Part shown: piece after piece, positions 1,983-22,703 of the stretch | Layout of the letters: each line of letters begins with the position of its first letter | Numbering within the stretch: position 1 is the first letter of the stretch | Assembly (NCBI RefSeq): GCF_002087085.1 | Contig: NZ_MWQY01000004.1 | Span: 62,001 to 126,000 of the forward strand | Length of the DNA stretch: 64,000 nt | Direction: 5' to 3' | Position numbers and translations under genes: made by a program | Notes under the pieces: model-generated | The model's database searches: none | What the model was told of the DNA's origin: nothing | The model's input: the letters and a program-made list of their open reading frames with translations, nothing else

Positions 1983-3167
1983 ATGGCGCTGGATAAACGT
2001 ATAAAACGACACATCTGGGCAAAGGAACACCGCTTTCTGGTGACCCAGGTACCTCAGCTAAGAGCCGTCTGTGCCAAAGAGATACGGGAGGAAGGCCTTG
2101 CACTATCCGAGGAGACGGAGCAGGGGATCTATTTTACCGGCAGAATCGAGGATGCCTACCGGGCTCATCTGATGCTGCGCAGCGCCTCCAGGATCTGGCT
2201 CTGCCTTGAGAGTTTCAAGGCAGGTGCCAGGGAAGAGCTCTTCCGCAGGGCGACGGCCCTCCCCTGGGAACTCCTTCTCAACCCCCGGATACCCCTGGAT
2301 ATCTCCGCCCGGGTACGCCACAGCCGGCTGGAACACGAAGGGGAGACCGCCGAAACCCTGACGGCGGCAATACAGCGCCGCTTCAGTGAAGCGGGAGGGA
2401 ATTCACCGAAGGAGAAAGGTGCCGGAGACGAGAGTCCCGGTCAGCGCCTCCGGGTAATTGTGGAGAACAACCGCGTGGAGCTGCGGGTCGACCTGAGCGG
2501 AGAACATCTGCACAAACGGGGATACCGGCTGCGGCAGGGAGCCGCCCCCTTACGGGAGACCCTGGCGGCGGGAATTATCCTGTGGGCCCTGGAGATCCGG
2601 CGGAAGAGGCACCCGGAAGCAGCCTGGCCGGAAAGGATCCATGATCCCTTCTGCGGCTCCGGAACCATCCCCATCGAGGCGGAGATGCTGCGCCTGGGAA
2701 TCGGTCCCGGGGCAGGACGGGAGTTCCTCTTCATGCAGCAGCCCCACTTTCGTGCGGCCGCCTTCGGGCACCTCAGAAAAAAGGCTGCGCAGCCCTCCGG
2801 TCAGCCGCCGGCGTGCAGGGTCGGCGGCTCGGACTCCTCACGGGAAATGCTGGAGATTGCCCGGCAGAACTGTGCCGCGGCGGGACTGGAAATCGGATTC
2901 GATTACGCTGACGCCCTCGGCGCTTCTTTGGACAGGATATTTTCAAACGGAACCCTGATTATCTGCAATCCGCCCTACGGCGAGCGCCTGGCGGAAGGCG
3001 GGGTTCTGCTTTTTAGAAGGATTTTCGCCAGGATACAGGAGACGGGATGTTCCGGAGTTATTATCCTGCCCCGCGCCCTGGAAGCAAAGCTTCCCCATGA
3101 CGGATTTACCCGGAAACTGAGCTTTACCAACGGGGGAATCCCGGTATCCGCGGTCTACCTGGACTGA
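1983..3167 (+). CDS. THUMP-domain SAM-dependent RNA methyltransferase (RlmL-like)
   Basis: SGEHLHKRGYR, APLRETLAAG, DPFCGSGTI, NPPYGERL. Start reassigned to Met65 of the track ORF because the upstream part overlaps the divergent promoter. Confidence 0.85.
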   Translation: MALDKRIKRHIWAKEHRFLVTQVPQLRAVCAKEIREEGLALSEETEQGIYFTGRIEDAYRAHLMLRSASRIWLCLESFKAGAREELFRRATALPWELLLNPRIPLDISARVRHSRLEHEGETAETLTAAIQRRFSEAGGNSPKEKGAGDESPGQRLRVIVENNRVELRVDLSGEHLHKRGYRLRQGAAPLRETLAAGIILWALEIRRKRHPEAAWPERIHDPFCGSGTIPIEAEMLRLGIGPGAGREFLFMQQPHFRAAAFGHLRKKAAQPSGQPPACRVGGSDSSREMLEIARQNCAAAGLEIGFDYADALGASLDRIFSNGTLIICNPPYGERLAEGGVLLFRRIFARIQETGCSGVIILPRALEAKLPHDGFTRKLSFTNGGIPVSAVYLD

Positions 3168-3180
3168 CGGACGGCTGCGT

Positions 3181-5406
3181 TCAGCGGACGGTAAAACTCG
3201 ATTCAATCCGTCTGTCTGCCCCCTCCAAACCTATCCGGTGGGTCCCCGGACTCAAGGGGAAGCGAAGGGAAACGAAGTCTCTGCCCCTGGCCTGCAGGCT
3301 GCCGTTTATACTGAGAAGCAGCTCCCCCTGACCCTCAGCCTCGATACTCAGCACCTGGCTTTTCCCCGGAAGAGTGGGATCGAGATAAAATACCGCCCCA
3401 TCCGCGGGAGAAAGGATTCGCAGGGCCTGGTCCATTCTGTACTTCCAGGGAAGTCCCCGTTCATCTCCCCAGGACCGGTACAACGAAGGCATGTAGATTC
3501 CGTCCTCCCGGTGAGCGCCGCAGGTATCCGGCTCGGTGCCGGTCCGGAAGTACTCCTCCAGGCTCCCGGGACAGTGAGGCCCGGCCCGTTCTCCCGTCAA
3601 GGGACAGATCCTCACCAGGACAATCCCCGCGGGAGGAGAGCCGGGTTCTTCCGTTACCCGGTAGACCGGATTTTCCTGCAGAGCCGTCAGAACAGCCACC
3701 GCAGCTGCTGCGGGGATGGAGCTGCCGGGACGACCGATAACCGTCTCCCCGGAGAAATTCCCCATCCAGATCCCCAGGGCCACCTTTTCCGTGGCCCCCA
3801 GGGCCCAGATATTGTTGAACTGGTTGGACGTCCCTGTTTTAAACATTGCGGGATAGGAAGTATTCAGGATACTGCCGGAACCAAAGCCGGTGATCCGTCC
3901 CGACTCGGAGGAGAGGATATCCCGGATCAGAAAGGCGGTCTCCCGGGACATCACCCTTCGTGGGGAAGATCCCGGGAGCTCCCGTTCCACCGACGAGGAG
4001 AGAAACAGCCCGTCGCGCTGAAAAACCGAGAAAGCGCTAAGCAGTTCCAGCAGGCTGATCTCCGCGTTTCCCAGGGCAATACCTGCCCCCAGGGAATCCC
4101 TCTGGTCCTCAAGGGAGTCAAAACCCAGGGCAAGGAGCCAGTCTGCAAAATCCGCAACGCCGGTCCGCACCACAGTATGGACGGCGGGTATATTCAGACT
4201 CGAAGCCAGGGCTACCCGCAGCCGCACGGGACCGTGAAAGGTATTGGAAAAGTTCTCCGGAAGATACACGGCCTCGCTGCCGAAGGCTGAAGGGATATCC
4301 GGCAGGAGCGTGGCGGGAGTCATCCCCTTCTCCAGGGCAAGGGCGTAGAGGAAGGGCTTGATGGTCGAACCCGGCTGACGCCTGATCCGGACTCCGTCGA
4401 TCTGCCCCTGGCTTTCGGTGTCGAAAAAATCAGCCGAACCGACCCAGGCCAGGACCTCCCCGGTCTCCACGGAGATTGCGAGTCCGGCGCCGTTGCTTAT
4501 CCGGTTCTCTCCGGCGGAATCGACCCTGGCGGAGATCTCTCCCTGAAGGATTTCCTGCACCTCCGGGTCAAGACTGCTGACAAACGCTTCTTTGCTGTTT
4601 ATTCCAGGAAGGCCGTCGACATAGCGCACAAAATGGGGCGCCCGAAAGGGCCAGGGCTCTGTTTTCCCGATAGCTGCACCTCTTTCGGTAACTGCTCTCA
4701 GCTTCTTCCGGTCCGTTACAATTCCAGCCCGGTGCAGCAGATTCACGGCAGCCTCGATGCTGCCGCCCTGCCGGGGATCGTAACGCCGGGGATTCCGGGG
4801 GATGAGGGCCAGCAAAGCCGATTCTTCCGGGCTGAGGCTCTGAATATTCCGGGAAAAATACTCCCTGGCGGCGGAGGCGACGCCTTCAACATTGGACCCC
4901 ATGGGCAGGGTATTGAGCCACAGCTCGAGGATTTCCCCTTTCGACAATCGAGCCTCTATACGCAGGGCATTCCAGGCTTCACGAAGTTTCCCCCCCAGCC
5001 CCGGTCCTTCGGGAGCCGCTCTTCCGGCTAGCTGCATGGTAATGGTGGAAGCTCCGGAGACAACACCTCCTGCACGTAGATTCGAGACCGCCGCCCGGAC
5101 TGCCGCCGCCGGGTCCACCCCGGGATGCAGGAAAAACCTGTCGTCCTCTCCCGCGATGAATATGGCAAGCAGATACTGGGGCAAAGCATCCAGGGGCAGG
5201 TATTCCCTCCGCAGCCCCTCATCATTGACCGGCAGCACCTGCAGGAGCCCGCCCCTCCGGTCCTCCACTCTCAGGCTCCAGGGGCCTGAGCGGAGCTCCC
5301 GGAGTTCAGGGAAGGGAAGAAGCAGGGAGAGGCCTGCAAGCAGAGCTGCCGCAAGAATGCAGACCCAGGGCAGAAACAGCAGACCGGAGAGGGAGCGTTT
5401 ACTCAA
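3181..5406 (-). CDS. pbpC: Penicillin-binding protein 1C
   Basis: Transglycosylase motifs EDDRF/GVD/GASTITMQ, transpeptidase SxxK (GSTIKPF), SLN, KTGT, C-terminal BiPBP-like domain; adjacent to an alpha-2-macroglobulin. Confidence 0.9.
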   Translation of the reverse strand: MSKRSLSGLLFLPWVCILAAALLAGLSLLLPFPELRELRSGPWSLRVEDRRGGLLQVLPVNDEGLRREYLPLDALPQYLLAIFIAGEDDRFFLHPGVDPAAAVRAAVSNLRAGGVVSGASTITMQLAGRAAPEGPGLGGKLREAWNALRIEARLSKGEILELWLNTLPMGSNVEGVASAAREYFSRNIQSLSPEESALLALIPRNPRRYDPRQGGSIEAAVNLLHRAGIVTDRKKLRAVTERGAAIGKTEPWPFRAPHFVRYVDGLPGINSKEAFVSSLDPEVQEILQGEISARVDSAGENRISNGAGLAISVETGEVLAWVGSADFFDTESQGQIDGVRIRRQPGSTIKPFLYALALEKGMTPATLLPDIPSAFGSEAVYLPENFSNTFHGPVRLRVALASSLNIPAVHTVVRTGVADFADWLLALGFDSLEDQRDSLGAGIALGNAEISLLELLSAFSVFQRDGLFLSSSVERELPGSSPRRVMSRETAFLIRDILSSESGRITGFGSGSILNTSYPAMFKTGTSNQFNNIWALGATEKVALGIWMGNFSGETVIGRPGSSIPAAAAVAVLTALQENPVYRVTEEPGSPPAGIVLVRICPLTGERAGPHCPGSLEEYFRTGTEPDTCGAHREDGIYMPSLYRSWGDERGLPWKYRMDQALRILSPADGAVFYLDPTLPGKSQVLSIEAEGQGELLLSINGSLQARGRDFVSLRFPLSPGTHRIGLEGADRRIESSFTVR

Positions 5407-8400
5407 TGATTACCAGCCTTCCGGCTCCCCTGCCGAATACCTCCTCCTCGTAGATTCCCCGGATCTCCGCCGGAGGAGTCGGAAATATACCCTTCCCTGT
5501 GGCACGTACCAGAAAATCGAGCTTCTGCTGTCCGGCGTAGAAGTGCCGAAAGTAGCAGCGGGCCTCATTGTCGAGAATCTTCCGTTCCGGCGCCAGGGAG
5601 CGGAAAATCATGAGGTCGGGATAGTAATACCCCTCGTCAAGGACCGTAATCTCCTCACCGTAGACCGTCTCCCGCTGAAAGCTGCCGCCGTCGGCTCCCC
5701 CCTCTTCCGCATAGCTGCGGGTACTGATCAGGTTCGCATCGACAATCTCGCAGCCCGAGGGGACGGGCACACGGAGCAGGGCCATGGAGCGGTCCCTGGC
5801 GGAGGAGACTGTCACCCGTACCCGATAGGTCTCTCCGGCAGCAAGGGTCGTAACCTTCTTCCCGTCCAGGCTCTCCATGGAGGTATATACGGAAAATCCC
5901 TCGTCCCTCGGCAGAGCGGCCTCGGCGGGCAATCCATAGCTGATGGTACCGGAGTAAAACACCGGGGAGCTTCCACTGCGGTTGAAGCTCAGGGGCAGCA
6001 CTGTATCCCTGGGCAGGGAAGCCGCAGGTTCCTCAAAGAGGGGAAGTTCAGCAGATACGGGGTCGGGATTCTCCGACGAAGCTGAGAGGATCGTCTGCCC
6101 CTGCAGACTGACCTCCGCGTTCAGCTCGCCGGAGGATTCGATGAAATCCCGGAAACTCTCTGCAAAACTTATCAGGACCCAGGTGTTGTCGTTCAGGGTC
6201 CCCCAGCGACCGTAGCGCTGACGCTGAATCAGGGTGTTTTGAACCCGGGTCAGCAGAGATGCCGGATCATCAAGGGAATGGAGAGCCATCTGCAGCAGAG
6301 AGAGTGCAGTCAGCTCCGAATCAAAGTAGAAACGCTTCTCATAGGTTTCGGTGATGTCCAGAGAGCGGGTACCGAGTTTCAGAAATTTCCGGACCCTTTC
6401 GAGGATCTCCCCGCCTTTATCGGGCCTGCCGATCTCGTTGAAACTGAGGGCCAGTAAAGCATATCCCGAGATTCCCAGGGCATCCCCCCGGGACAGGGCA
6501 TCCTTCAGCTCCTCCTCCGGCCGGTCCCTCAGCAGGCTGCGTACATAAAGGGAGTAGAGCCTGGTGAAATCGGAAAGCGTCCCGTTGCCGTACAGTCCCT
6601 TGAGGTAGGCCATGAGCCGGTCTGTATCCGGTTCCTGTACATCGAAGTCTCCCACCCGTGCCAGCGCCAGGTAGTGGGCAAGGCGGACGCTCAGCCAGGC
6701 CGACGAGTACTCACTGCCGGGCCGGTATCCGAAACCGCCGTCCCGGTTCTGATAGCCCTTGAGCATGGTGAAGAATTTCTCCACCTCCCGGGAATCATGG
6801 ACCGTATTGAAGAACTCCAGCTTATCCTTCAGAACCAGATGGGGGAGCACCCGGAACATTTCACCCTCAAGAATCTCATAGTCGGTTTCCAGAAGGCGTT
6901 CCACCAGATCCTTCAAAGGCCCCAGGGGATTGGGACTGAGGCGAAGACTGATGCTTCCGTACCCCGGTGCGATGGATGAAGGAACAAGCAGGGCCTCCTG
7001 CGCCGTATCGGACTCGTCCAGGGTCCCGGCTATGGTAAAGGATTCCCTTACCAGGGGTTTATCCACCGTCAGGGTCGACTCCAGGATCTCCGACAAAACC
7101 CCGGAGCGCAGAGTAAACTCGAGCTTTGCCTCTCCGCTCTCCTCTGCAAGCAGCGTAAAGGTCACCTCCCGGCTCTCGCCGGGTCCAAGGCTCAGGCTTT
7201 TTCGGGACTCCCCGTGGACACGGATCTCCGGCTCCGGGGAAGTACAGGCCAGGTCAATCTCCTGGACCTCGGCGGACAGATTGGTCAGAACGACTCCCGC
7301 TTCTGCAGTATCCCGCATCCTGAGCTTCCTCGGAAGAGCTGCCCGCATGGTGATGGGGTTCCGAACCGCCAGCTCCTCTTCCTTAAGACCGAAGCGGTTT
7401 CCCTTTACCGCCACCGCGGTGACCCGGTAGGTGGTCAGGGTATCCGGCAGGGTAAAGACCGCTTCGGCATACCCGTCAGGCCCGGTAACAAGCACTGGTT
7501 CAAAGACAGCCAGGGGAGAAAAGTCCTTCCTCCGCTCCAGCTTGCCCTCATCGTCACCGTCGCCGCCCTGAAGGTCCCTGACCTCGTAGGTTACCGGATT
7601 GATAAGCAGGGAACGGCTGTCCGCTCCCAGTACACCCAGGGGAAACTTGTGTTCGGCATAAAAAAAGCTCATGGGATCCGGAACATGATAATCGACGAGG
7701 TCCACGACTCCCCGGTCAACCGCCAGAAGGGTGACCTCCGCAGCTTCCACCGGGACACCGCCGGAGCTTACCCGAATTCGTGCCCGTCCCTCGTCTCCCG
7801 GACGGTAGAGCTTTTTATCCTGGCTCACGGAGACGTCCAGTGCAAGGCTCTCGGGACTGACCCGGAGACGGGCGATACCGAAAAGCCCCCGGGGCTTGCC
7901 CAGGTCCGGATCAAAGTAGCTTTTGGGAGCCTCGCCGCGGCGGGTATGGGAACTCAGGGCCACGTAAACCACCGGAATATGCTCACCCCTTACCGGAACA
8001 TCGATGGTGGCCGCGGATCCGGAGAGTTCCACAAAACGTTCCTCAACGATACTTTCCCGCTCCACGGTCAGCAGATAGGTTCCCGAGGGCAAAGGTGATT
8101 TGACCAGAATCCGCGCCGTATCCCCGGGGGAATACTGCTCCCTGTCGGGAACAAGTTCGATATCCCCGGGATCCGGCTGGTTCCACTGAACATAGCTGGA
8201 ACCCGTGGCGTAGAAGTCTATCTCCGAGAGGGCCCGTCTTCCTTCTCCGTCGGCGGCGGAGATGCGCAGTAGATACTCTCCCGCCTCGGGCGGGGTAATC
8301 TGGAACTCAAGTCTTTCTTTCCCGGCTTCCAGATCAAAGGCGGAAACGGGTTCTTCCACCAGTTCATAGCGATTGTTCAACCTGTCGTAGACCCCCCGCT

Positions 8401-11194
8401 GGCGGCTTACCTGCCAGCGCCTCCTGATCAGTTCTCCCCGGATTTCCTTACGTGGACCGCTGTATGCTGCACCGTCGGGTCGCACAAATACAGCCTCCAC
8501 GGAGACCTTCTCCCCGGCTTTTACAAAGGTGGACCAGCCGCCCTCGTGTCCGTCAAGAAACCTGGACCCGATGTAGAAGGCCGCCGGATGTACCAGCACC
8601 GAAGCCCGGGCGGCCAGTTCCTGCCTTGACTGGTCCCGGACGGCAAGCTCTGCCTGATAACGGTAGGGGAGCCCCGGAATATGATCTCCCCCGCTCTCCC
8701 GGGAGAGCAGAACCGTCCCCGTTCCGTCCAGGGCGCCCCGGTCCTCCTCCACGACCTGAAGTCCGCCCCAGCGCCGGGGAGCGAAGCGATAATCCCGCCA
8801 GGATGTTCCCGGGGGGACATAGGACCAGGGTTCCCGCATCCATAGGCTGTGGTAGAGACCTCCGGCAAGGGAGCCTCCGGAGAGGAAACGGGCCGTCCCT
8901 GTCATGTTGACGGTATCCCCGGAATAAAGCAGCCTCTCGGGGGATTGAAGCTTTACCTCGAAGGCCGCCCTGCGGAACTCCGCCACGGTAAAGGGGATCT
9001 CCTCGGTATGCCCCTCCCGCCGGTAGATGATGCGGTACTGTCCCGGCTCGAGCTCCTCGGGCAGGGTAAAACTGCCGTAAAAGCCGCCGGAAGCACTGCT
9101 TGTGCCCTCCGCACGATGGAAGGCCTCGGCCCTGTAGCGCTGCTCGCTCACCTCCAGGGTATAGGGTCCCTGGTAGGGGCTGTAGCTTCCGGCGCTCCAG
9201 CTGCGGTCGATTCCCCGGAAGGTTACCGTCTCGCCCTTCCGGTAGAGTCCCCGGTCGGTAAAGATAAAAGCCTCCATGCGCTCTTCCTCGATACTGCCGG
9301 GACGGGTAAAAGAGTAGACGCCGAAGTGATACTGGTTATGGGACCCGTTGGGGATAAACTCCGCCCTGTCCGCACCATTGCTTACACGGATACGCAGCCT
9401 GTCTCTCCCATCCACCAGAAAAAACCTTGAGTACTCACCCTCGGAAAAGGAAATTTCCCCCAGCCCTGACTGGTCGGTCAGGGTTTCAGCCAGAGCTGTC
9501 CGGTTTCTGAGGAGCTCCACCCGGGCCCCGGCTATCGGCTCTCCCGTCGACAGGGAGGCCGCCCAGACCAGGGCCCTGTTGTGGGCGATCCGCGTCGTTA
9601 TTCCGATATCGGTGACCTGAAGCTGAAGGTTGCGCTGTTCCCAGGAATTTCGCTTGCCCTTTTTCTCCTCACCGAAATTCCAGGAGATACCCACAGTGCC
9701 GAAGCCCTGAGGATTCAGGTAAGGAGAAAGATCGAGAACCTCAAAGTGCTTGGTATTCCGGGGGAGGCTGGAAAAATCGTAGGGTTCCAGGGCCTTCGCA
9801 TCAAAGGATGAGTAGGGATCATCGATGGACGATATGTGCCAGAGCCCGTCAAAAACATTCTGATACTCATAGATGATCTTCGGGTCAAACTGTGCTTCCA
9901 GCATGCGGCTTCCGGTGTCGGGAAAATAGTAGTACCTGGTTGCGGGTCCTACCTCCACATCCAGGCTTTCACCCGCAGCCAGGCTCCTGCCGTGGACATC
10001 CCTGAGCCCCGGGGCAATATCCACCCTGTAGACCGACTCATACTCCACCGGCAGATTGTTGAGCTTGATGGTATTGTCCCAGATCTCGATATGATCGGCG
10101 ATATCATCGACCTCCAGGCTGGTGGAAATAAAAGGGGCTATCTCCTCCGGCTCCGTCTCCCCCAGGGGATGGCTGAACTCGAGGAAGAGGGGATTCGCAT
10201 CCCCCTTGTCGCTCCCGGGAAAGGTATAGGAATAACTGCGCATGCGTCTGAAGACGAAGGGTTTCAGGGTCCGGAAGCTGCGCATCGAATCCTCCGTCCT
10301 TCCAAGGTATCCCTCGTCGGAAGCCGCGCCGGATTTCAGTACAACCTGGACATCACTGTCCTCAGGCAGGATCCTGTCCAGGGTCAGGACCAGGGTCCGT
10401 TCCAGTCGCTGCGCCGGTCCATCAAAGCTCTCCTCCCCGGGCCTTTCGGCCCTGAAGGAGTACTCAGTATTCCCGCTCCGGACCGACAGAAAGGAGGCTG
10501 TATACTCCGGATTCACCGGCCAGGTGAACTCACAGGTAATGTGCCGGGCGGTTTCCGGGGGAACGTCATCCTGATCAACCAGACCGAAGCTTTCCGGTTT
10601 TCCGGCGTAAACCTGGGAGAAATCGAGATGTTCCGTATGAAAGGTAAACTCCAGGGCTTCATCGAGCTTTTTACCCCCCAGGCTGGCAATTCCCCGCTTC
10701 AGGCTCACCCGATATTCCCGCTGCCCCTCAAAAGGCTGAGAGGGCTCAAAGCTGAGCAGGCGTGAACCGTACCAGCGAAAGAAACCGTCCACAGGAGGCT
10801 CGATGCTCAGATGGGGATGCGTCTTCAGGGGATCTCCCAGCTTCGAAAGGGGGACCATGGGCTGGTTGAAAGCCACATAGATATCCGGTCTCTTCATCTC
10901 CACCGGAAGCTCCCCTTCAGGGCCATAAGCCGTTACCGTCAGGGAATCAGCGGTCTCAACAGGAGAAAAAAACTCGTCTCCTTTGACGTCGGCATCGTAA
11001 TAGACGATTCCCCCCTCCCGGTTCAGGGACGACTCTTTCAACCCCAGCTGCAGCGCCTCACTTGCAGCACCTCCCTTTACGGCGGAGCTAAAACTCACTT
11101 CGGGAGCCCCTCCACAGCCGGTAATCGAGACTGCAAAAAAAATAGATAAAACCGGGAAAATAAAGCCTTTAAGGATGAGACCGATGTTTTTCAT
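5399..11194 (-). CDS. Bacterial alpha-2-macroglobulin family lipoprotein
   Basis: ~1930 aa; lipobox ITGC; FTDRGLYRKGE, AVDRGV, LPDTLTTYR, QNRDGGFGY motifs. Start placed at MKNIG (uncertain). Confidence 0.9.
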   Translation of the reverse strand: MKNIGLILKGFIFPVLSIFFAVSITGCGGAPEVSFSSAVKGGAASEALQLGLKESSLNREGGIVYYDADVKGDEFFSPVETADSLTVTAYGPEGELPVEMKRPDIYVAFNQPMVPLSKLGDPLKTHPHLSIEPPVDGFFRWYGSRLLSFEPSQPFEGQREYRVSLKRGIASLGGKKLDEALEFTFHTEHLDFSQVYAGKPESFGLVDQDDVPPETARHITCEFTWPVNPEYTASFLSVRSGNTEYSFRAERPGEESFDGPAQRLERTLVLTLDRILPEDSDVQVVLKSGAASDEGYLGRTEDSMRSFRTLKPFVFRRMRSYSYTFPGSDKGDANPLFLEFSHPLGETEPEEIAPFISTSLEVDDIADHIEIWDNTIKLNNLPVEYESVYRVDIAPGLRDVHGRSLAAGESLDVEVGPATRYYYFPDTGSRMLEAQFDPKIIYEYQNVFDGLWHISSIDDPYSSFDAKALEPYDFSSLPRNTKHFEVLDLSPYLNPQGFGTVGISWNFGEEKKGKRNSWEQRNLQLQVTDIGITTRIAHNRALVWAASLSTGEPIAGARVELLRNRTALAETLTDQSGLGEISFSEGEYSRFFLVDGRDRLRIRVSNGADRAEFIPNGSHNQYHFGVYSFTRPGSIEEERMEAFIFTDRGLYRKGETVTFRGIDRSWSAGSYSPYQGPYTLEVSEQRYRAEAFHRAEGTSSASGGFYGSFTLPEELEPGQYRIIYRREGHTEEIPFTVAEFRRAAFEVKLQSPERLLYSGDTVNMTGTARFLSGGSLAGGLYHSLWMREPWSYVPPGTSWRDYRFAPRRWGGLQVVEEDRGALDGTGTVLLSRESGGDHIPGLPYRYQAELAVRDQSRQELAARASVLVHPAAFYIGSRFLDGHEGGWSTFVKAGEKVSVEAVFVRPDGAAYSGPRKEIRGELIRRRWQVSRQRGVYDRLNNRYELVEEPVSAFDLEAGKERLEFQITPPEAGEYLLRISAADGEGRRALSEIDFYATGSSYVQWNQPDPGDIELVPDREQYSPGDTARILVKSPLPSGTYLLTVERESIVEERFVELSGSAATIDVPVRGEHIPVVYVALSSHTRRGEAPKSYFDPDLGKPRGLFGIARLRVSPESLALDVSVSQDKKLYRPGDEGRARIRVSSGGVPVEAAEVTLLAVDRGVVDLVDYHVPDPMSFFYAEHKFPLGVLGADSRSLLINPVTYEVRDLQGGDGDDEGKLERRKDFSPLAVFEPVLVTGPDGYAEAVFTLPDTLTTYRVTAVAVKGNRFGLKEEELAVRNPITMRAALPRKLRMRDTAEAGVVLTNLSAEVQEIDLACTSPEPEIRVHGESRKSLSLGPGESREVTFTLLAEESGEAKLEFTLRSGVLSEILESTLTVDKPLVRESFTIAGTLDESDTAQEALLVPSSIAPGYGSISLRLSPNPLGPLKDLVERLLETDYEILEGEMFRVLPHLVLKDKLEFFNTVHDSREVEKFFTMLKGYQNRDGGFGYRPGSEYSSAWLSVRLAHYLALARVGDFDVQEPDTDRLMAYLKGLYGNGTLSDFTRLYSLYVRSLLRDRPEEELKDALSRGDALGISGYALLALSFNEIGRPDKGGEILERVRKFLKLGTRSLDITETYEKRFYFDSELTALSLLQMALHSLDDPASLLTRVQNTLIQRQRYGRWGTLNDNTWVLISFAESFRDFIESSGELNAEVSLQGQTILSASSENPDPVSAELPLFEEPAASLPRDTVLPLSFNRSGSSPVFYSGTISYGLPAEAALPRDEGFSVYTSMESLDGKKVTTLAAGETYRVRVTVSSARDRSMALLRVPVPSGCEIVDANLISTRSYAEEGGADGGSFQRETVYGEEITVLDEGYYYPDLMIFRSLAPERKILDNEARCYFRHFYAGQQKLDFLVRATGKGIFPTPPAEIRGIYEEEVFGRGAGRLVIIE

Positions 11195-16598: not shown

Positions 16599-19049
16599 TC
16601 AGACCACGGGAAAAGTAATGTAAAACACGGGGACAGGTTTGCGGGAAAGCGTAATACTCCCCTGAAGCTGTTTGACAAAGGCTGGAATCAGCTGCATCCC
16701 CAGGGACCGGGCATCGTTAAAATCGATATCCTCCGGGAAAGGACGTCCGGAATTGGAAAGCGTAAGGGAATATTCACCCCTGCTGAAATCCTGCGTCAAC
16801 TGTACCGTGAAGGACGGATCTTTTTCTTCACCGAAGCCGTGTTTGAGAGCGTTTATCGCTATCTCGTTCGTCAGCAGCGCGATGGGTATCGCCCTCCGGT
16901 GGTCCATGGAAATCTCCGCGACATCGTTGACTATCCGGATCGGGAACGATGAAAATGAAAAGACCGTTTCCAGGACCTCCTGCAGGTAGGTATGCAGATT
17001 TATACTTGAGAAGCTGTTTCCCCGGTACAACCTGGTGTTAAGAATATTGATGGCCTCAATATGCCGTTCTATATCCGACAGATCAACCTGATTCTCCAGT
17101 GTCGTACTTTTAAGCCTGATGAGGGACAGAATCATCGCCAGGTTATTCTTTGCCCGGTGACTGAACTCCTTCATCAGATAATCCTTTTCCTCCACCAGGG
17201 ACTGCAGATGCTGCTCTTCGTTTTTCCTGCCGGTAATGTCCCTGACTATTACAACAAGCGCATTCTCGTTGGGAAGAGGAGTCGCGCTTACTTCTACAAA
17301 GAGGCTGTTGTCTCCCGCGGTCCGATGAATCGTCTCAAAGGTTTCTCCTCCGCTCTCCATAATCCGGTGAAGATGGTCGTGAACATCCTTTCCTGTCTCC
17401 AGCAGATCGATATCCCCGATGGACATCTCCAGAAGCTCCGCTCTCGGGAATCCGGTCAGCGAACAGTAGGCACCGTTGACATCGGTTATGTGTGCATTGC
17501 CGTCGATCAACAGAAAACCGTCCTGCATGGTATGAACGATGGTTCGGTACTTTTCTTCCGCCAGCTTCTGTTCGCTTATATCCATATTAAATCCGACGAA
17601 GCGGACAGGAACACCTTCCGCATTGAAGATCGCCTTGCCGCGGCCAGATATCCAGCGATAGCTGCCGTCTTTGGCCCGCAGGCGAAAGACAGATTCGTAT
17701 ATATCCCTGGCCCCCGAAAGATACTCCTCCACACTCCTGAAGGCCTGCTCCCTGTCCTCAGGATGCAGCAGCTCGCTCCAGGCTTCGGATGTGTAGGGCA
17801 GTTCATCGGGATCATAGCCCAGCATGCGGGCGAAACGGTCTGAATGATATGCCTCGTTGGTTTCCAGGTTCCAGTCCCAGAGCCCGTCCCGGCTGCCTTC
17901 AACTGCCATACGCAGGCGTTCCTCGCTGATCATGAGGGATTCCTCTGCTGCCCTGAGACTGGAAATATCGTGAAAAATAGCCTGCAGGCAGTCATCGTGA
18001 ACCTTTTTACTGTTCATGATCACCGGGACAAGAGTCCCGTCTTTTTTCCGGATATTACGTTCCCGCTGTACGGTTTCACCCGCGTATACACGGCGGTAGG
18101 AGAGGGGATGCTCCGCCATTTCCTGCTGATCAAAAAGCACCCGGATATTTCTGCCCACCAGTTCTTCCCGGGAATACCCGGTAAGCTCGGTCATGTTTCT
18201 GTTAGCTTCGGTGATTATCCCCTCGGCATTGCCTATAAGAATGCCGTCTGCAGCCTGTTCAAAAATTGCCTTGAACCGATGTTCGCTTCTTTTCAGCTGT
18301 ATTTCGACTTCCTTCTTTTCACTGATGTCCCTGGTAATCGACAAAATATGAGGTTCGCCGTTCAGGGTGATCAATCGTGCCGACATCAGACCGGTTTTCC
18401 GACTGCCGTCCCTGCAGCGGAATACGGATTCCAAGTTCTCAACGATTCCGTCCTGTTTCAAGCCATTGACCAGTTTTTCCCGGTCCTCAGGTGATGCCCA
18501 GATATCGATATCGGAGGAGAGACGGCCGATAACATCTTCCCGGGTGAATCCGGTCATAGAAGTAAATCCTTCGTTGATATCCACATAGAGACCATCGAGC
18601 CTGTTGATGTTTATCGAATCCGGGCTGGTCATGAATGCAGCCCGATACTTCTGCTCGCTCTCTTTAATCTTCGACGAGGCATCGAAGAGCTTGTAGGCCA
18701 TCCGGATTGATTCGATCAGGATAAATTCCCCCGAATTCTTGAGAACATATCCGTACCCGCTGATCTGTTCCACCCGGTCAACGTACTGCTTTTCCGAGTG
18801 GCTGGTTAAAAAGATTATGGGAAGGTCCCGGATTTCGAGGATGCCCGCGGCCGCCGCTGTTCCGTCCATACCCTTGCCGAGATCGATATCCATGAGAACA
18901 AGGGAAATATCCGGATCCGATTGTACCAGGGATATGGCATCCTCTCCGTTTAACGCCGTATCAACAATAAAGTTGTGCTTTTTCAGTACCCGTGCTTCGG
19001 AGAGGGCGATAATAGATTCATCCTCGACCAGCAATATTTTTTTCGGCAT
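16599..19049 (-). CDS. Receiver-multi-PAS histidine kinase (HisKA_2-type)
   Basis: N-terminal REC (LLVEDE, LMDI), about four PAS domains, HRAKNNL H-box, NEIAINALKHGF, SLGMQL. Confidence 0.9.
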   Translation of the reverse strand: MPKKILLVEDESIIALSEARVLKKHNFIVDTALNGEDAISLVQSDPDISLVLMDIDLGKGMDGTAAAAGILEIRDLPIIFLTSHSEKQYVDRVEQISGYGYVLKNSGEFILIESIRMAYKLFDASSKIKESEQKYRAAFMTSPDSININRLDGLYVDINEGFTSMTGFTREDVIGRLSSDIDIWASPEDREKLVNGLKQDGIVENLESVFRCRDGSRKTGLMSARLITLNGEPHILSITRDISEKKEVEIQLKRSEHRFKAIFEQAADGILIGNAEGIITEANRNMTELTGYSREELVGRNIRVLFDQQEMAEHPLSYRRVYAGETVQRERNIRKKDGTLVPVIMNSKKVHDDCLQAIFHDISSLRAAEESLMISEERLRMAVEGSRDGLWDWNLETNEAYHSDRFARMLGYDPDELPYTSEAWSELLHPEDREQAFRSVEEYLSGARDIYESVFRLRAKDGSYRWISGRGKAIFNAEGVPVRFVGFNMDISEQKLAEEKYRTIVHTMQDGFLLIDGNAHITDVNGAYCSLTGFPRAELLEMSIGDIDLLETGKDVHDHLHRIMESGGETFETIHRTAGDNSLFVEVSATPLPNENALVVIVRDITGRKNEEQHLQSLVEEKDYLMKEFSHRAKNNLAMILSLIRLKSTTLENQVDLSDIERHIEAINILNTRLYRGNSFSSINLHTYLQEVLETVFSFSSFPIRIVNDVAEISMDHRRAIPIALLTNEIAINALKHGFGEEKDPSFTVQLTQDFSRGEYSLTLSNSGRPFPEDIDFNDARSLGMQLIPAFVKQLQGSITLSRKPVPVFYITFPVV

Positions 19050-19250
19050 TCAGGTCCCCAGAACTCCACCGGCAAGATACCTAGAAGTATACGGGACTTT
19101 CAGCGGGAAAACAAACAGCTCTGGTCGAAAATACGGGTCCCGGAAGAAAACGTCTGAGCACATAAACAGGCAGGCCGGCAGAAATTACCGGCCTTTTTCG
19201 TGCATCATGCACAACGCGGCTGCAGGGCATACCGGGATCAGCGGGAAAAA

Positions 19251-19279
19251 TTGATTCGTCCCGGGAAATGTGATAGTCT
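19251..19279 (+). promoter_or_regulatory. Putative sigma70 promoter of the protease-cystatin unit
   Basis: TTGATT-N17-TAGTCT with an extended -10 TG. Confidence 0.45.
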
Positions 19280-19327
19280 GGAGTATAAACAATGGTTTAT
19301 CCATAAAAATGTATCGAGGAGTATCCC

Positions 19328-21565
19328 ATGAAAAAACCCGCAGCGGCAGCCGTTCTGTTTTACCTTGCCATCTTTACAGCTTTTATCCTTACAGGCTGCA
19401 GCGGCGGTGGGGCCGGGGGAGGAGAGCAACCCTATGCTCCTCAATCATCACTGGACGATATAATCCTGGACACGGATTTCTTACAACATGTCTATCTCGA
19501 CATTACCCAGAGTCAGATTGCCAATACATCCGTGGATATGGAATACAGCCTTACCGATGGATCCACCTGGGTGGACTGTACCGACAATCCCCAACCGGTG
19601 GTATTGACGGTCGGAACCGGAGTGTGGATCCGTAATGAAGGAGACGGTTCATCCGAGCGCTTTCTCGGCCAGGTGGATGCTTTATCCGGTCCCGATATTA
19701 ATGCGGGGGATGAGCTGTATGTCGGTGTCTATGACGCCGGAGCCAACACCTGGGACGATGTCTCCTCTGTGTCACCGGGAAATATCCTCAATATTCTTGC
19801 CTATATCCAAAATATCGGTACCGATGCCTGCCCTTCCGGTCACCGCTTCGACTTCTATATTTCGGATGACACGACAATAACGACTGCCGATACATTGATC
19901 CGCAGCTATGTGTATACCTCCGCTACAGCTGCCGGCGGAACAATGTCTTTCGTCCTCACCTTCCAGGTTCCCTCCGGCTTCTCCGCCGGGACCTACTACA
20001 TCGGATATATCGCCGACGCAGGGAATACTGTCAGCGAGATGAACGAGGGCAACAACACCTCCGCTCCCGAGGGGGTTACTCCGCTGATCGTCAAGGACAA
20101 TTCAGCAGTCCCGGGCGGGGCCGTTAAAATCTACAATTCCTGGGGTGAAGGGAACGGCTGGGAGAATAATGCCGACGGATACTACTGGATGCCCTACGAG
20201 GTCCTGAAAAATAACCGGATGCTGGTGAGCTACTACTACAACGATTTTACCCGGGAGTATAATCCCACCTCTGTACTGGTCTTTTCACTGACCCATCCGG
20301 AACGGGATAAGCTGCGCGTTACCGTCGGCCTGGGAGATCCAGCTGATCCGTATATGAAAAAAACATTTCAAAGTGAATGGAACAGCACAGACCTGATCAG
20401 CGGAGCGATCCCTTTTCCAGCCAACAGCATGATCCTGGATATAAGTGAGTTCGCAAGCGGCATCAACAGCTACGATCTCTTTTTCATGGTGGAAAATTCC
20501 AGCGGTACTTCCGGTTCACTTGGCAATCTGAGTCTCGAACTCTACGGCGATTATGATTCCCCCGCAATAAGAACGCTGAATTCTGTCTCCACCACATTAC
20601 CCGCAACCCTTTCTGCAAACGCAGAAACAACCGTATACCTCAGCACTGCAGGAGAACTGACCCTGACCGAACAACAGCAGATTCTCCCCATGTCCCGTTC
20701 CACGAGCCTGTCGGGCATTACTTTTAATGAACGTATGCCCTCCTCCGGAGAAATTGCCCGAAACATAGACCGCTACGGAGTGTATATTCCCGGAAAAAAC
20801 TACAACACAATAGTCAAGCAAGGTTTCGGAACCGGATATGCCCCCCCGTCTCGAAGCGTATGGGAAAGCACCAGGATCCTGGAGAGTATCGATACCGGAA
20901 TAACCAGGGGTACACTGCCCATGGCGGTTGACAACTCCGCCAGCGTTTATTTCCCCCCAACAGGCAATCAGGGATCCGAAGGTTCCTGTTCAGCCTTCTC
21001 GGTGGGCTATTACATCCAGACCTATACGGAAGCAAAGGAACACAACTGGGATCTTTCTTCAACAAGCTGGACCGGCGGCGCCACAGGTTCACCATCTTCA
21101 AACCTGGATAAAATTTTCAGCCCGGATTTTATCTATCATCAGATAAACGACGGCGGTGATAACGGGTCGAACATCATTCAGGCGGCCGGGCTGGTAACCA
21201 GAATCGGCGGCGCGACATGGAACACCATGCCCTACGATACTGCTGATTCAACCTCCTGGCCATCGGAGGCCGCCTGGCGGGAAGCCCCGAAATACCGGGG
21301 GCGGGAACCGGCCAAGTATTATTGGGACAATCTTTCAGCCGGTTATTTCGTTATAGAAGACGATTCAGGCATTCAGCTTCTGAAAAGTCTTCTCAACGCG
21401 GGCTACTGCGTCAGTACCGGTATTGCAGCAGAAACGGTGTATAACGGACTCGATATCAATGACGTCGTGAATTCGGCTGTTACGTGGACATCCACCAATC
21501 ATGCCCAGACTATTGTAGGCTATAAGGAGGGGACCTCGTGGGACCCGTCAAATCCCGACTCCTGA
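19328..21565 (+). CDS. Lipoprotein with CARDB domain and circularly permuted papain-like (C1) cysteine protease
   Basis: Lipobox LTGC24. CARDB-like domain (IQNIGT..YISDD..GTYYIGYIAD..VSEMNEGNN). KIYNSWG..DGYYWMPY at N270; LPMAVD..GNQGSEGSC554; FSPDFIY; NH725AQTIVGY. Confidence 0.85.
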   Translation: MKKPAAAAVLFYLAIFTAFILTGCSGGGAGGGEQPYAPQSSLDDIILDTDFLQHVYLDITQSQIANTSVDMEYSLTDGSTWVDCTDNPQPVVLTVGTGVWIRNEGDGSSERFLGQVDALSGPDINAGDELYVGVYDAGANTWDDVSSVSPGNILNILAYIQNIGTDACPSGHRFDFYISDDTTITTADTLIRSYVYTSATAAGGTMSFVLTFQVPSGFSAGTYYIGYIADAGNTVSEMNEGNNTSAPEGVTPLIVKDNSAVPGGAVKIYNSWGEGNGWENNADGYYWMPYEVLKNNRMLVSYYYNDFTREYNPTSVLVFSLTHPERDKLRVTVGLGDPADPYMKKTFQSEWNSTDLISGAIPFPANSMILDISEFASGINSYDLFFMVENSSGTSGSLGNLSLELYGDYDSPAIRTLNSVSTTLPATLSANAETTVYLSTAGELTLTEQQQILPMSRSTSLSGITFNERMPSSGEIARNIDRYGVYIPGKNYNTIVKQGFGTGYAPPSRSVWESTRILESIDTGITRGTLPMAVDNSASVYFPPTGNQGSEGSCSAFSVGYYIQTYTEAKEHNWDLSSTSWTGGATGSPSSNLDKIFSPDFIYHQINDGGDNGSNIIQAAGLVTRIGGATWNTMPYDTADSTSWPSEAAWREAPKYRGREPAKYYWDNLSAGYFVIEDDSGIQLLKSLLNAGYCVSTGIAAETVYNGLDINDVVNSAVTWTSTNHAQTIVGYKEGTSWDPSNPDS

Positions 21566-21936
21566 TCATACTCATGATCCCGGCAATTGCGGCTCCAGCG
21601 TTCTCTTCAGGTCCCCGGGAGAGAGCGCAGGAAAACGTGGTCAATCCAGCCCCGGAGACTGAAGCGTCAGGCGGTCTTACGGGGGGATTCAGGAAAGCGG
21701 AAAAGGACAATCCTCATGTAATCGAATCTGTCCGTTTTCTGAAAGCAGAAATGGACGCCCGGGGGATCAGGGTTCAGGAAGTCCGCAGTTCGGAAATCCA
21801 GGTTGTATCGGGATATAAAGTGCATCTTGTGGCTGAGTACCGAAAAAATGGAACCAGCGACGTTCTGGATGCCCTGATCTATCTGCCTCCCCGGGGAGAG
21901 CCTCAGTTATTATCGCTTACATACGGTGCTGAATAA
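21538..21936 (+). CDS. Secreted cystatin-like cysteine protease inhibitor
   Basis: GTG start with SD AAGGAGG; signal peptide; LTGGF N-terminal Gly motif, helix, QVVSG (QxVxG) loop at 21799-21813. Confidence 0.8.
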   Translation: MGPVKSRLLIILMIPAIAAPAFSSGPRERAQENVVNPAPETEASGGLTGGFRKAEKDNPHVIESVRFLKAEMDARGIRVQEVRSSEIQVVSGYKVHLVAEYRKNGTSDVLDALIYLPPRGEPQLLSLTYGAE

Positions 21937-21974
21937 AAAGCAGGAGTCAGCTGTACAGGTCTGAAGCTTCCCCC

Positions 21975-22703
21975 TCAGGCATACCACCGGCAAAACAGCC
22001 GCTGCAGCAGGTCCAGGACCGCAAAAAAGAGAAGTCCCGCCAGGCTCAGGGCCATGATGCCGGCGTACATACGGGTGTAGGAGATCCTGGACCAGCTGTC
22101 CATGATGTACCAGCCTATCCCCGTCTGAGTGGCGAAGGTCTCAGCCAGAAACAGCACCGCGAAGGCGGTCCCCAGAGTCAGCCTCAGGGAGCTGAAAATC
22201 CGCGGAAGCAGGGCAGGCAGAATCACGTGGACCAGAAGGTCCCGCCTGCTTCCCCCCAGGGTATAGAGAGAGTCGAAATAATGCCTGTTGATTCCCGCGG
22301 TTCCGTCCCGAATTTCCAGGTAAAACTGAAAGAAAACGATCAGGGCCACGAGAAATATCTTTGAAAGGTCCCCAAGCCCCAGAAAGAGCAGAATGATCGG
22401 CAGAAGGGCGATTTTCGGAACCGGAAAGAGAACATAGACCACGGGGCTCACGACAGAGTCCGCTGCGCCGACGGTCCCGGAAAGAATTCCCAGAACCAGG
22501 GCTGGAACAAAGGCCGCAGCCAGTGCGGCCAGCACGCGAAAGAGAGAAGAACCGAGATGGAGCATCAGTTCGCCCCTGACAATCTCCGTAAACATTTCAC
22601 GGCCGACGGACACGGGGGAGGGCAGAAAGGGCCGGGCCACCAGGAACGAAGCGATCCACCACAGGGCAAAGAGGAACACCACGGCAAAGGCTGTCCTTTT
22701 CAT
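21975..22703 (-). CDS. ABC transporter permease (NitT/TauT family)
   Basis: LPSPVSV, PVPKIALLP, LGGSRRD..VILPA, AET..GIG. Confidence 0.9.
   Translation of the reverse strand: MKRTAFAVVFLFALWWIASFLVARPFLPSPVSVGREMFTEIVRGELMLHLGSSLFRVLAALAAAFVPALVLGILSGTVGAADSVVSPVVYVLFPVPKIALLPIILLFLGLGDLSKIFLVALIVFFQFYLEIRDGTAGINRHYFDSLYTLGGSRRDLLVHVILPALLPRIFSSLRLTLGTAFAVLFLAETFATQTGIGWYIMDSWSRISYTRMYAGIMALSLAGLLFFAVLDLLQRLFCRWYA

Follow-up and report, generated by a model that had tools for sequence, protein, structure and literature searches.

Overlapping genes for a predicted circularly permuted papain-family lipoprotein and a divergent cystatin that may be its cognate inhibitor

The papain-like peptidases of family C1 are among the best-studied protease families, and their members, such as xylellain, cathepsins K and L and procaricain, present a pro-region, the catalytic Cys, the His and the Asn in that linear order. 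In the staphopain/staphostatin and SpeB/Spi pairs of bacteria a small inhibitor gene comes after the gene for a cysteine protease; staphostatin and Spi are specific inhibitors that protect the producer, they are not cystatins, and the proteases they accompany belong to other clan CA families. Here we describe two overlapping genes in a stretch of 64,000 nucleotides (nt) of RefSeq assembly GCF_002087085.1 (contig NZ_MWQY01000004.1, positions 62,001 to 126,000 of the forward strand; "the window", in whose numbering all coordinates are given). As in the pairs above, a gene for a cysteine protease, here a predicted one, is followed by a small gene for a candidate inhibitor, here one related to the cystatins. 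An original prediction, made from the letters of the sequence, had proposed such a pair with 28 nt (21538-21565) common to the two reading frames, and the list of open reading frames (ORFs) agrees:

19328..21565, + strand: gene for a predicted permuted C1 cysteine peptidase lipoprotein, 745 amino acids (aa), ORF with an ATG start
21538..21936, + strand: gene for an exported cystatin-like protein, 132 aa, ORF with a GTG start

A 2023 classification of papain-like enzymes (PMC10318531) lists permutations for NlpC/P60, LRAT, C97, C92, OTU and LupA, and says that cluster I, with papain and the cathepsins, retains canonical structures. As described in parts of that paper and of PMC3142127, permuted NlpC/P60 proteins (LRAT, YaeF/YiiX, C97/PPPDE) and OTU/LupA are natural permutations that keep the catalytic residues, and in this they resemble the peptidase proposed here. 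In those permutants the Cys helix has moved, with or without strand beta1', giving His before Cys, whereas in the window protease Cys still precedes His and it is the portion from the Asn strand onward that has moved instead. On the inhibitor side, Kordis and Turk 2009 (PMC2784779), the only systematic study of prokaryotic cystatins that our search found, reports cystatins and stefins as rarities among bacteria, with stefins present in Spirochaetes, regards chagasin/ICP (I42) as the natural inhibitor family of prokaryotic C1 peptidases, and holds that bacterial cystatins are unlikely to regulate bacterial proteases. Our search of the full-text literature, which had most subscription journals outside its reach, found no description of a permuted C1 peptidase or of a bacterial cystatin-C1 operon; the apparent novelty lies in a circular permutant of family C1 and in a protease-inhibitor operon that uses a cystatin.

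The 745-aa protein starts with MKK and carries a lipobox, ILTGC, at Cys24, which is at least 90% conserved in alignment A2 (25 relatives). The lipobox agrees with the lipoprotein of the original prediction; placement at the cell surface, which was also claimed, does not follow from it, and the lipobox is the sole evidence for that placement. Three papain motifs are present: KIYNSWG (residues 266-273; NSWG at 270-273, with the third catalytic residue Asn270), GNQGSEGSC, with the oxyanion-hole Gln548 and the catalytic Cys554 (codon 20987-20989), and NHAQTIVGY, with His725 (codon 21500-21502), 20 residues beyond which the protein ends. The catalytic order, Asn270 then Cys554 then His725, is not the linear Cys, His, Asn of C1. 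A search of 5.8 billion proteins provided 92 homologues, the closest named one being a "CARDB domain-containing protein" of Marispirochaeta sp. (Spirochaetaceae) with 86% identity. Across 51 permuted sequences of 34-86% identity N270, S271, G273, Q548, C554 and H725 are invariant and W272 is present in at least 90%; the invariance of the Gln, Cys, His and Asn-Ser positions argues for a working active site, and we infer that the permuted protein is catalytically active.

The order of the segments can be read directly from the relatives. When the query was compared with the 92 homologues by BLASTP, about 60 were colinear with it and about 20 aligned as two swapped blocks, query residues 464-734 corresponding to residues about 30-290 and query residues 264-443 to about 303-477 (in P0063, for example, to 28-288 and 303-477, respectively). 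These swapped-block relatives have the ordinary order, that is, a pro-region, Cys, His, Asn-Ser-Trp and then a beta-sandwich. A motif census combined with segment typing assigned 61 database proteins and the query to the order N..QC..H and 24 proteins to QC..H..N, while the four homologues that could not be typed by motif are nevertheless colinear with the query; in every permuted protein the C-terminus lies 10-21 residues beyond the His. The 745-aa protein is thus a true circular permutant of the papain family (C1), with two blocks swapped relative to canonical relatives, much as the lipoprotein with permuted C1 motifs had originally been described.

No Pfam PF00112 match is found in the window protease at E<=1, NCBIfam gives no match, and Pfam sees only CARDB in it. 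Three permuted relatives, P0054, P0055 and P0084, do pass PF00112 (22.5-31.9 bits against a cut-off of 20.7), and these matches cover only positions 1-177 of the 220 of the hidden Markov model (HMM) and stop at the C-termini of the proteins, as expected if the last strands are absent from that end. Run against the PDB, a profile of the 51-row alignment matches cathepsins K and L, procerain and xylellain at E values down to 3.8e-6 and aligns the mature N-terminus together with the Cys motif and, separately, the His motif: GNQGSEGSC is aligned to NQGQCGSC of cathepsin K, and NHAQTIVGY to NHAVLAVGY of the same enzyme. The displaced NSWG strand aligns with the C-terminal strand of xylellain (3ois, residues 252-283), and the block that it opens aligns to canonical relatives from about residue 303 onward, after their His. 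The beta-sandwich that follows the NSWG strand directly does so in canonical relatives too. The parts of the protein are as follows:

19328..19399, + strand: signal peptide and lipobox ILTG-C24 (from the translation and the conservation of Cys24)
Residues about 51-140, + strand: unassigned beta domain, before CARDB
19760..20062, + strand: CARDB beta-sandwich, residues 145-245 (PF07705, E 1.3e-9; fold matches 3idu and 2kl6)
20099..20242, + strand: putative displaced C-terminal papain strands, residues about 258-305, with Asn270-Ser271-Trp272-Gly273 (from xylellain 3ois 252-283 and conservation)
20243..20656, + strand: beta-sandwich, residues about 306-443 (query 264-443 being one block in P0063 303-477 and similar relatives; strands of the model)
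20657..20908, + strand: pro-region-like internal linker, residues about 444-527 (from BLASTP, profile and structural alignment)
20909..21562, + strand: main catalytic part, residues 528-745, with the mature-type N-terminus LPxxVDxS, Gln548, Cys554 and His725 (from the cathepsin K profile alignment, E 3.8e-6, and the invariant residues)

An AlphaFold2 model built on the 51-row alignment has a mean predicted local distance difference test (pLDDT) of 86.1 and a predicted template-modelling score (pTM) of 0.79, with blocks over residues 261-300 at pLDDT 86-97. Foldseek, run with the whole 745-aa model, gave only CARDB and macroglobulin-type beta-sandwiches among its top 50 matches, and the papain fold emerged only in a VIA-align fold search of 48,161 chains. 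There xylellain matched at Z 16.0 (204 residues, root-mean-square deviation 3.4, model residues 489-744), a dozen C1A zymogens, including procathepsins, at Z 13-15, Cwp84 at Z 12.1, cathepsin C at Z 11.7 and Lpg2622 at Z 10.3; by this comparison the model has a papain-like two-lobe fold. The last aligned residue of the model, 739, maps to residue 173 of procaricain, which in papain numbering presumably lies just before the strand of Asn175, and such an end point agrees with a cut placed in the hairpin that joins the His strand to the Asn strand. Residue conservation and model confidence suggest that the displaced strands would fold back into the barrel. Several of the structural alignments have their first residues (472-494 of the model) within pro-segments, namely those of xylellain, procathepsin X, Cwp84 and Lpg2622, and the profile aligns residues 431-551 with procerain B 28-169 and residues 486-539 with procathepsin L 82-143; by these alignments the stretch of residues about 444-527 seems to be a pro-region that has been kept and now serves as an internal linker. 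The window protease thus shares with C1A enzymes such as xylellain, cathepsins K and L and procaricain the predicted fold, the set of Gln, Cys, His and Asn-Ser-Trp residues, the local motifs and a pro-like segment before the mature N-terminus. It differs from them in its order (Asn block, pro-like linker, Cys, His) and in that the permuted domain is set in a lipoprotein with CARDB and other beta domains and lies below Pfam detection. The permuted form is represented by about 60 sequence clusters from Spirochaetota, Riflebacteria and relatives. A natural and widespread form that is cut between the His and Asn strands would extend what the papain fold is seen to tolerate, and a pro-like segment tethered at both ends would be a natural experiment on zymogen control.

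The 132-aa product of the second gene opens with a signal-like segment (to about residue 24), continues with a disordered linker that reaches about residue 45, and ends with a cystatin domain (46-132). The cystatin signature that had been claimed for it is both present and conserved: GG stands at 49-50 (Gly49 codon 21682-21684) and QVVSG at 88-92 (21799-21813), and among 26 aligned bacterial sequences G49 and G92 are invariant while Q88 and V90 are found in at least 90%. Pfam, NCBIfam and a PDB sequence search returned nothing for the protein, and a word-based search returned five close relatives only, the closest named one being a "hypothetical protein" of Marispirochaeta aestuarii (92%). An exhaustive hmmsearch of 1.84 billion representatives with a six-sequence profile (the protein and close relatives) gave 55 matches at E<=1e-3. 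The best non-self matches (E 2.0e-15, 2.5e-15 and 4.4e-13) are multi-domain proteins with 4-10 Pfam Cystatin/SQAPI repeats, and P0098 and P0099 (profile E about 2e-15) match Pfam Cystatin at 1e-106 and 2e-81, respectively. When 41 of the 55 matches were compared with Pfam, 17 scored above the PF00031 cut-off, 7 gave weak cystatin or SQAPI matches and 17 gave none, these last being single-domain proteins of about 100-150 aa.

The AlphaFold2 model of the small protein is disordered over residues 1-50 and has a confident domain at 53-129 (pLDDT about 90), in which a helix (59-74) is followed by strands 78-89, 93-103, 106-116 and 123-129, with QVVSG in the first hairpin. Cystatins head both fold searches, which is the outcome on which the original prediction depended. 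The first 25 Foldseek matches are all cystatins or a cystatin-derived scaffold (best E 1.5e-3, none reaching 1e-3; target-normalised template-modelling score up to 0.72), and matches 1-11 of an independent VIA-align search are chains of the cystatin superfamily (Z 8.5-10.1), among them chicken cystatin in complex with falcipain-2 and tarocystatin in complex with papain. Sequence profile and predicted fold together indicate that the small protein is a genuine, divergent cystatin. It resembles the I25 cystatins (phytocystatins, chicken cystatin and stefins) in its predicted helix and four-stranded sheet, in the QxVxG of the first hairpin and in the N-terminal Gly; unlike them it is bacterial, has a signal peptide, falls below Pfam thresholds and is encoded beside a presumed endogenous target. 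Its signal-like N-terminus contains no Cys, and a lipobox is present in many relatives. The export signal also stands in contrast to staphostatin and Spi, which act in the cytoplasm.

The arrangement of the two genes suggests that the proteins are made together:

21524..21565, + strand: predicted translational-coupling junction, comprising AAGGAGG at 21524-21530, the GTG at 21538 and the 28-nt overlap (sequence reading)
19050..19327, no strand: divergent intergenic region, expected promoter site (sequence reading)

A Shine-Dalgarno sequence, GAGGAG (19316-19321), precedes the protease ATG by 6 nt, and a second, AAGGAGG, lies within the protease gene, 7 nt 5' of the cystatin GTG; this GTG start is consistent with the N-termini of homologues (MGPVKS...). 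The overlap and the internal Shine-Dalgarno sequence together imply co-transcription and coupled synthesis. A promoter belonging to the pair is argued from the divergent orientation of the upstream gene, that arrangement being the whole basis for it, and a consensus scan of 18900-22200 for promoters of sigma-70-like type gave 0 sites, where shuffled sequence would be expected to give 3.1. In three runs metatranscriptome contigs of 151-261 nt, at least 95% identical, lie on parts of the protease gene, and a contig of run X18 also covers 21771-21941 in the cystatin gene, although in both cases DNA carry-over is possible.

The pairing of the two genes recurs in other genomes. A scan of contigs with the protease alignment yielded 72 loci (36 permuted, 33 canonical and 3 untyped), and 33 of the permuted loci, those with at least 400 nt of downstream sequence, could be assessed. 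A first-round profile made from Marispirochaeta-type cystatins only found a same-strand match directly downstream in 8 loci (E<=2e-6). After iteration 14 of the 33 (L001, L003-L006, L010-L014, L016, L023, L025 and L029) have the permuted gene followed immediately by a cystatin-like ORF of the same orientation, and the proteases of these loci are 41-82% identical to the query. With the other pairings described below, these loci bear out the expectation that the two genes co-occur beyond this genome. At one further locus, L030, a lipoprotein gene on the + strand (7084-7521) comes right after the end of the permuted protease gene at 7079, and its product matches Pfam Inhibitor_I42 (chagasin) above the cut-off (E 6.3e-19); no chagasin is present in the window. 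Chagasin has an Ig-like fold and is unrelated to cystatin, and at L030 one C1 inhibitor seems to have been displaced by another that is not its orthologue. No other observation argues as strongly for an inhibitor of the adjacent protease being encoded in this slot as the finding there of an unrelated C1 inhibitor. Pfam recognised no further inhibitor family in 50 of the 119 small same-strand flanking ORFs, chosen as longer, non-nested and unassigned. At none of the 33 canonical loci of the contig scan was a cystatin-like ORF found at E<1e-5, only 13 of these loci having at least 400 nt downstream. The cystatin-like ORF at L012:4799-4975 encodes 59 aa, the N-terminal part of the domain only, and may be a decayed or frameshifted copy; at L008 and L022, both from Riflebacteria, a protein of ~330-360 aa with what look by eye like Sel1-type repeats is encoded 3' of the permuted protease.

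A search in the reverse direction, with the cystatin alignment against 401 Spirochaetota genomes, picked out 7 strong places (E<1e-10) in genomes other than that of the window, nine weak matches (E 7e-5 to 9e-4) being left out of this phylum count. Five of the 7 adjoin a C1 peptidase, permuted or canonical. In G036 the cystatin adjoins a permuted protease; in G159 the cystatin gene comes first and runs up to the start of a gene of canonical order that matches Pfam Peptidase_C1 (E 6.4e-17); and in G171 and at two places in G397 it comes right after canonical-order C1-plus-FN3 proteins of about 820-860 aa (Pfam E 4e-13 to 2e-16). We note that these canonical pairs (G397 twice, G171 and G159) lie at L090:1292-4139, L091:1501-4443 (- strand), L092:1501-4307 (- strand) and L075:1417-3344, and combine a cystatin-like lipoprotein with a C1 peptidase that has FN3 and GH85_C-like domains. 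At L078:760-1770 (G186) the cystatin-like domain is C-terminal in a 337-aa protein that has a hydrophobic segment at its other end. A metagenome scan with the narrower alignment A5, which reaches only relatives of the QVV[AS]GY type, placed a permuted protease directly upstream of the cystatin in 4 of 10 loci, 3 more being too short. The window's own genome, which is 97% complete, holds one cystatin-like gene, one member of the permuted family (the gene described here) and no Pfam C1 match; no other C1 peptidase being found, the adjacent protease is the only candidate for an endogenous target.

Taking these observations together, we think it probable that the two genes form a translationally coupled operon for a permuted protease and its cognate cystatin inhibitor, as their sequences suggest. 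The operon would belong to a free-living, marine, Marispirochaeta-like spirochaete which, to judge by the closest named relatives of the two proteins, falls within that genus or close to it. Its first product would be an exported lipoprotein in which the Asn-Ser-Trp strands and the beta-sandwich come first, the pro-like linker next and the Gln/Cys helix and His strand last, and its second product a Sec-exported divergent cystatin, the overlap and internal Shine-Dalgarno sequence allowing for coupled, stoichiometric co-production. By analogy with eukaryotic cystatins and papain, the cystatin would most likely occupy the protease cleft through its Gly49 N-terminal segment and the QVVSG hairpin. 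This would keep the enzyme, whether periplasmic or at the envelope, in an inactive state until it reaches its site of action or the inhibitor is removed or outcompeted, and activation might proceed by cleavage at the linker. Co-transcription, binding, inhibition and linker-cleavage activation are inferred parts of this scheme. Protease-cystatin pairs of this kind offer a directly testable system in a harmless marine bacterium; the genes are now annotated "CARDB domain-containing protein" and "hypothetical protein", and profile models would improve that annotation.

One element of the original prediction, that the permuted architecture impairs propeptide control and so calls for a cystatin, does not fit what we find. 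Canonical-order C1 peptidases in other spirochaetes pair with the same cystatin family, so that a link between the pairing and impaired propeptide control is unsupported; moreover, the permuted protein keeps a segment that aligns with the pro-regions of zymogens, and permuted loci without an adjacent inhibitor are numerous (18 of the 33 assessable).

A broader proposal, which we offer only tentatively, is that bacterial cystatins are endogenous regulators of their bacteria's own C1 peptidases rather than anti-host proteins. Here the cystatin would control an "inside-out" C1 enzyme of duplication-fusion origin whose pro-region has become an internal tether, with activation giving an enzyme of two chains, one of which would lend a strand to complete the barrel of the other. 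Were this true, the papain family would have a new zymogen architecture, and the question of whether cystatins arose in bacteria or in eukaryotes would be reopened.

Several observations weigh against the operon of a permuted protease and its cognate inhibitor. The window proteins receive no C1 or cystatin call from Pfam or NCBIfam, so that both assignments come from profile and fold; the position of strand 264-289 beside the His strand is likewise suggested by residue conservation and model confidence. The iterated HMM behind the count of 14 loci was trained on its own matches. No recognisable inhibitor gene adjoins 18 of the 33 assessable permuted loci, namely all 7 from Riflebacteria, six of a spirochaete subgroup of 34% identity and five others, and the protease therefore evidently does not require an inhibitor encoded beside it. 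At two of the strong cystatin places, G186 and G367, a C1 peptidase is absent from the surrounding 1.5 kb, and in metagenome contigs the short cystatin-like ORFs of L099 and L100 stand beside HNH and Mu-transposase-like genes, a context which suggests that some cystatin copies are mobile, and that of L102 beside a GDSL lipase gene. The Pro-Trp second hairpin of type-2 cystatins is absent, the loop being LPPRG here and variable in relatives; stefins likewise lack Pro-Trp. Finally, in the three metatranscriptome runs with contigs, no RNA-library contig spans the junction at 21538-21565.

It is possible that the cystatin is instead an "emergency" inhibitor of foreign papain-like proteases, such as those of hosts, grazers or competitors, and that its position next to the protease gene is incidental or only regulatory; we consider this unlikely. 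Such an emergency role for bacterial cystatins is put forward in parts of Kordis and Turk 2009 (PMC2784779), and it would accommodate both the cystatin-like genes that lie away from any C1 peptidase and the 18 permuted loci that lack an adjacent inhibitor. Nevertheless, adjacency recurs with permuted and with canonical C1 peptidases across divergent genomes, with frames that mostly overlap or abut, the overlap with its internal Shine-Dalgarno sequence points to stoichiometric co-production, and the unrelated chagasin in the same slot at L030 speaks against a foreign target. Metagenome runs from marine, seawater and marine-sediment sources contain the window stretch; this distribution, in marine and sediment metagenomes rather than host samples, fits a free-living organism with no host proteases to counter. 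The conserved cystatin-C1 operons and the chagasin replacement point in the opposite direction to the view of bacterial cystatins expressed in those parts of PMC2784779.

Alternatively, the small protein could be a helper in maturation or transport, an intermolecular chaperone akin to a pro-domain that assists folding or export of the protease, and not a reversible off-switch. The permuted barrel must assemble from segments about 450 residues apart, translational coupling would supply a partner during synthesis, and the pairing is conserved, all of which a chaperone would explain. We nevertheless judge this role to be distinctly improbable: the same cystatin family also accompanies C1 peptidases of canonical order, over half of the permuted loci lack a partner gene beside them, the permuted protein retains a pro-region-like segment in cis, and the conserved residues are exactly the inhibitory elements of cystatins, the N-terminal Gly and QxVxG.

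Very little speaks for the view that the 745-aa protein is a former peptidase, now a binding or adhesin-type lipoprotein with the cystatin-like protein as its structural partner. The lack of a Pfam C1 match in the window protein and its multi-domain beta-sandwich and CARDB architecture, typical of surface proteins, would suit such a role. In 51 sequences whose identity falls as low as 34%, however, the Gln, Cys, His and Asn-Ser positions never vary and the Trp is at least 90% conserved, which is hard to explain without catalysis, and active C1 enzymes match the predicted fold at up to Z 16; on these two grounds we reject it. We likewise dismiss, as highly improbable, an artefact of assembly or gene calling such as tandem protease genes fused by misassembly, for while tandem protease genes are real in L014, L064, L065 and L071, the same unbroken architecture, ending 10-21 residues past the His, occurs in about 60 proteins from many independent assemblies and in 36 genome loci, and 16 sequencing runs of several studies contain at least half of the stretch's sampled words.

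With the permuted order taken to be real, an origin by duplication and fusion is plausible, because the NSWG strand and beta-sandwich are contiguous in both permuted and canonical forms, because the homology of the query restarts at canonical residue 28, just past the signal peptide, and because relatives carry tandem protease genes. At L014 two permuted protease genes (4842-6524 and 6604-8313) are followed by a single cystatin-like gene (8226-8648), and at L064, L065 and L071 the tandem genes are canonical; tandems of this kind would be the raw material for duplication and fusion. A quick IQ-TREE tree of the Cys-His segment covers 90 rows and 228 columns and omits the CARDB-only matches P0089, P0090 and P0092; in it the main permuted clade (60 rows) has a Shimodaira-Hasegawa-like approximate likelihood ratio test (SH-aLRT) value of 99. 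Three small permuted groups, P0084, P0062/65 and P0060/61/64, branch near the canonical clade with support <95, and a minimum of 2 changes between permuted and canonical states is required on this tree, whose weak backbone support is compatible with one origin of the permutation or with several. We also note that at L101 the permuted protease upstream of the cystatin appears as two ORFs, 2157-3224 (with NSWG) and 3300-3836 (with the His near its end), which may be a frameshift, a sequencing error or a natural split.

The genes that flank the pair lie on the opposite strand, as had been claimed. Upstream is a response-regulator/PAS/HisKA_2 kinase gene (16599-19049, - strand). Rfam has no match in 18900-22100, including at a 9-bp GC-rich hairpin of no obvious role (19172-19194, AGGCCGGCAGAAATTACCGGCCT) that lies mid-way in the divergent intergenic region, upstream of both genes, and is followed by T-rich sequence. 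Downstream is a gene for an ABC permease (21975-22703, - strand), and then come genes for an ATPase and an NMT1-like binding protein.

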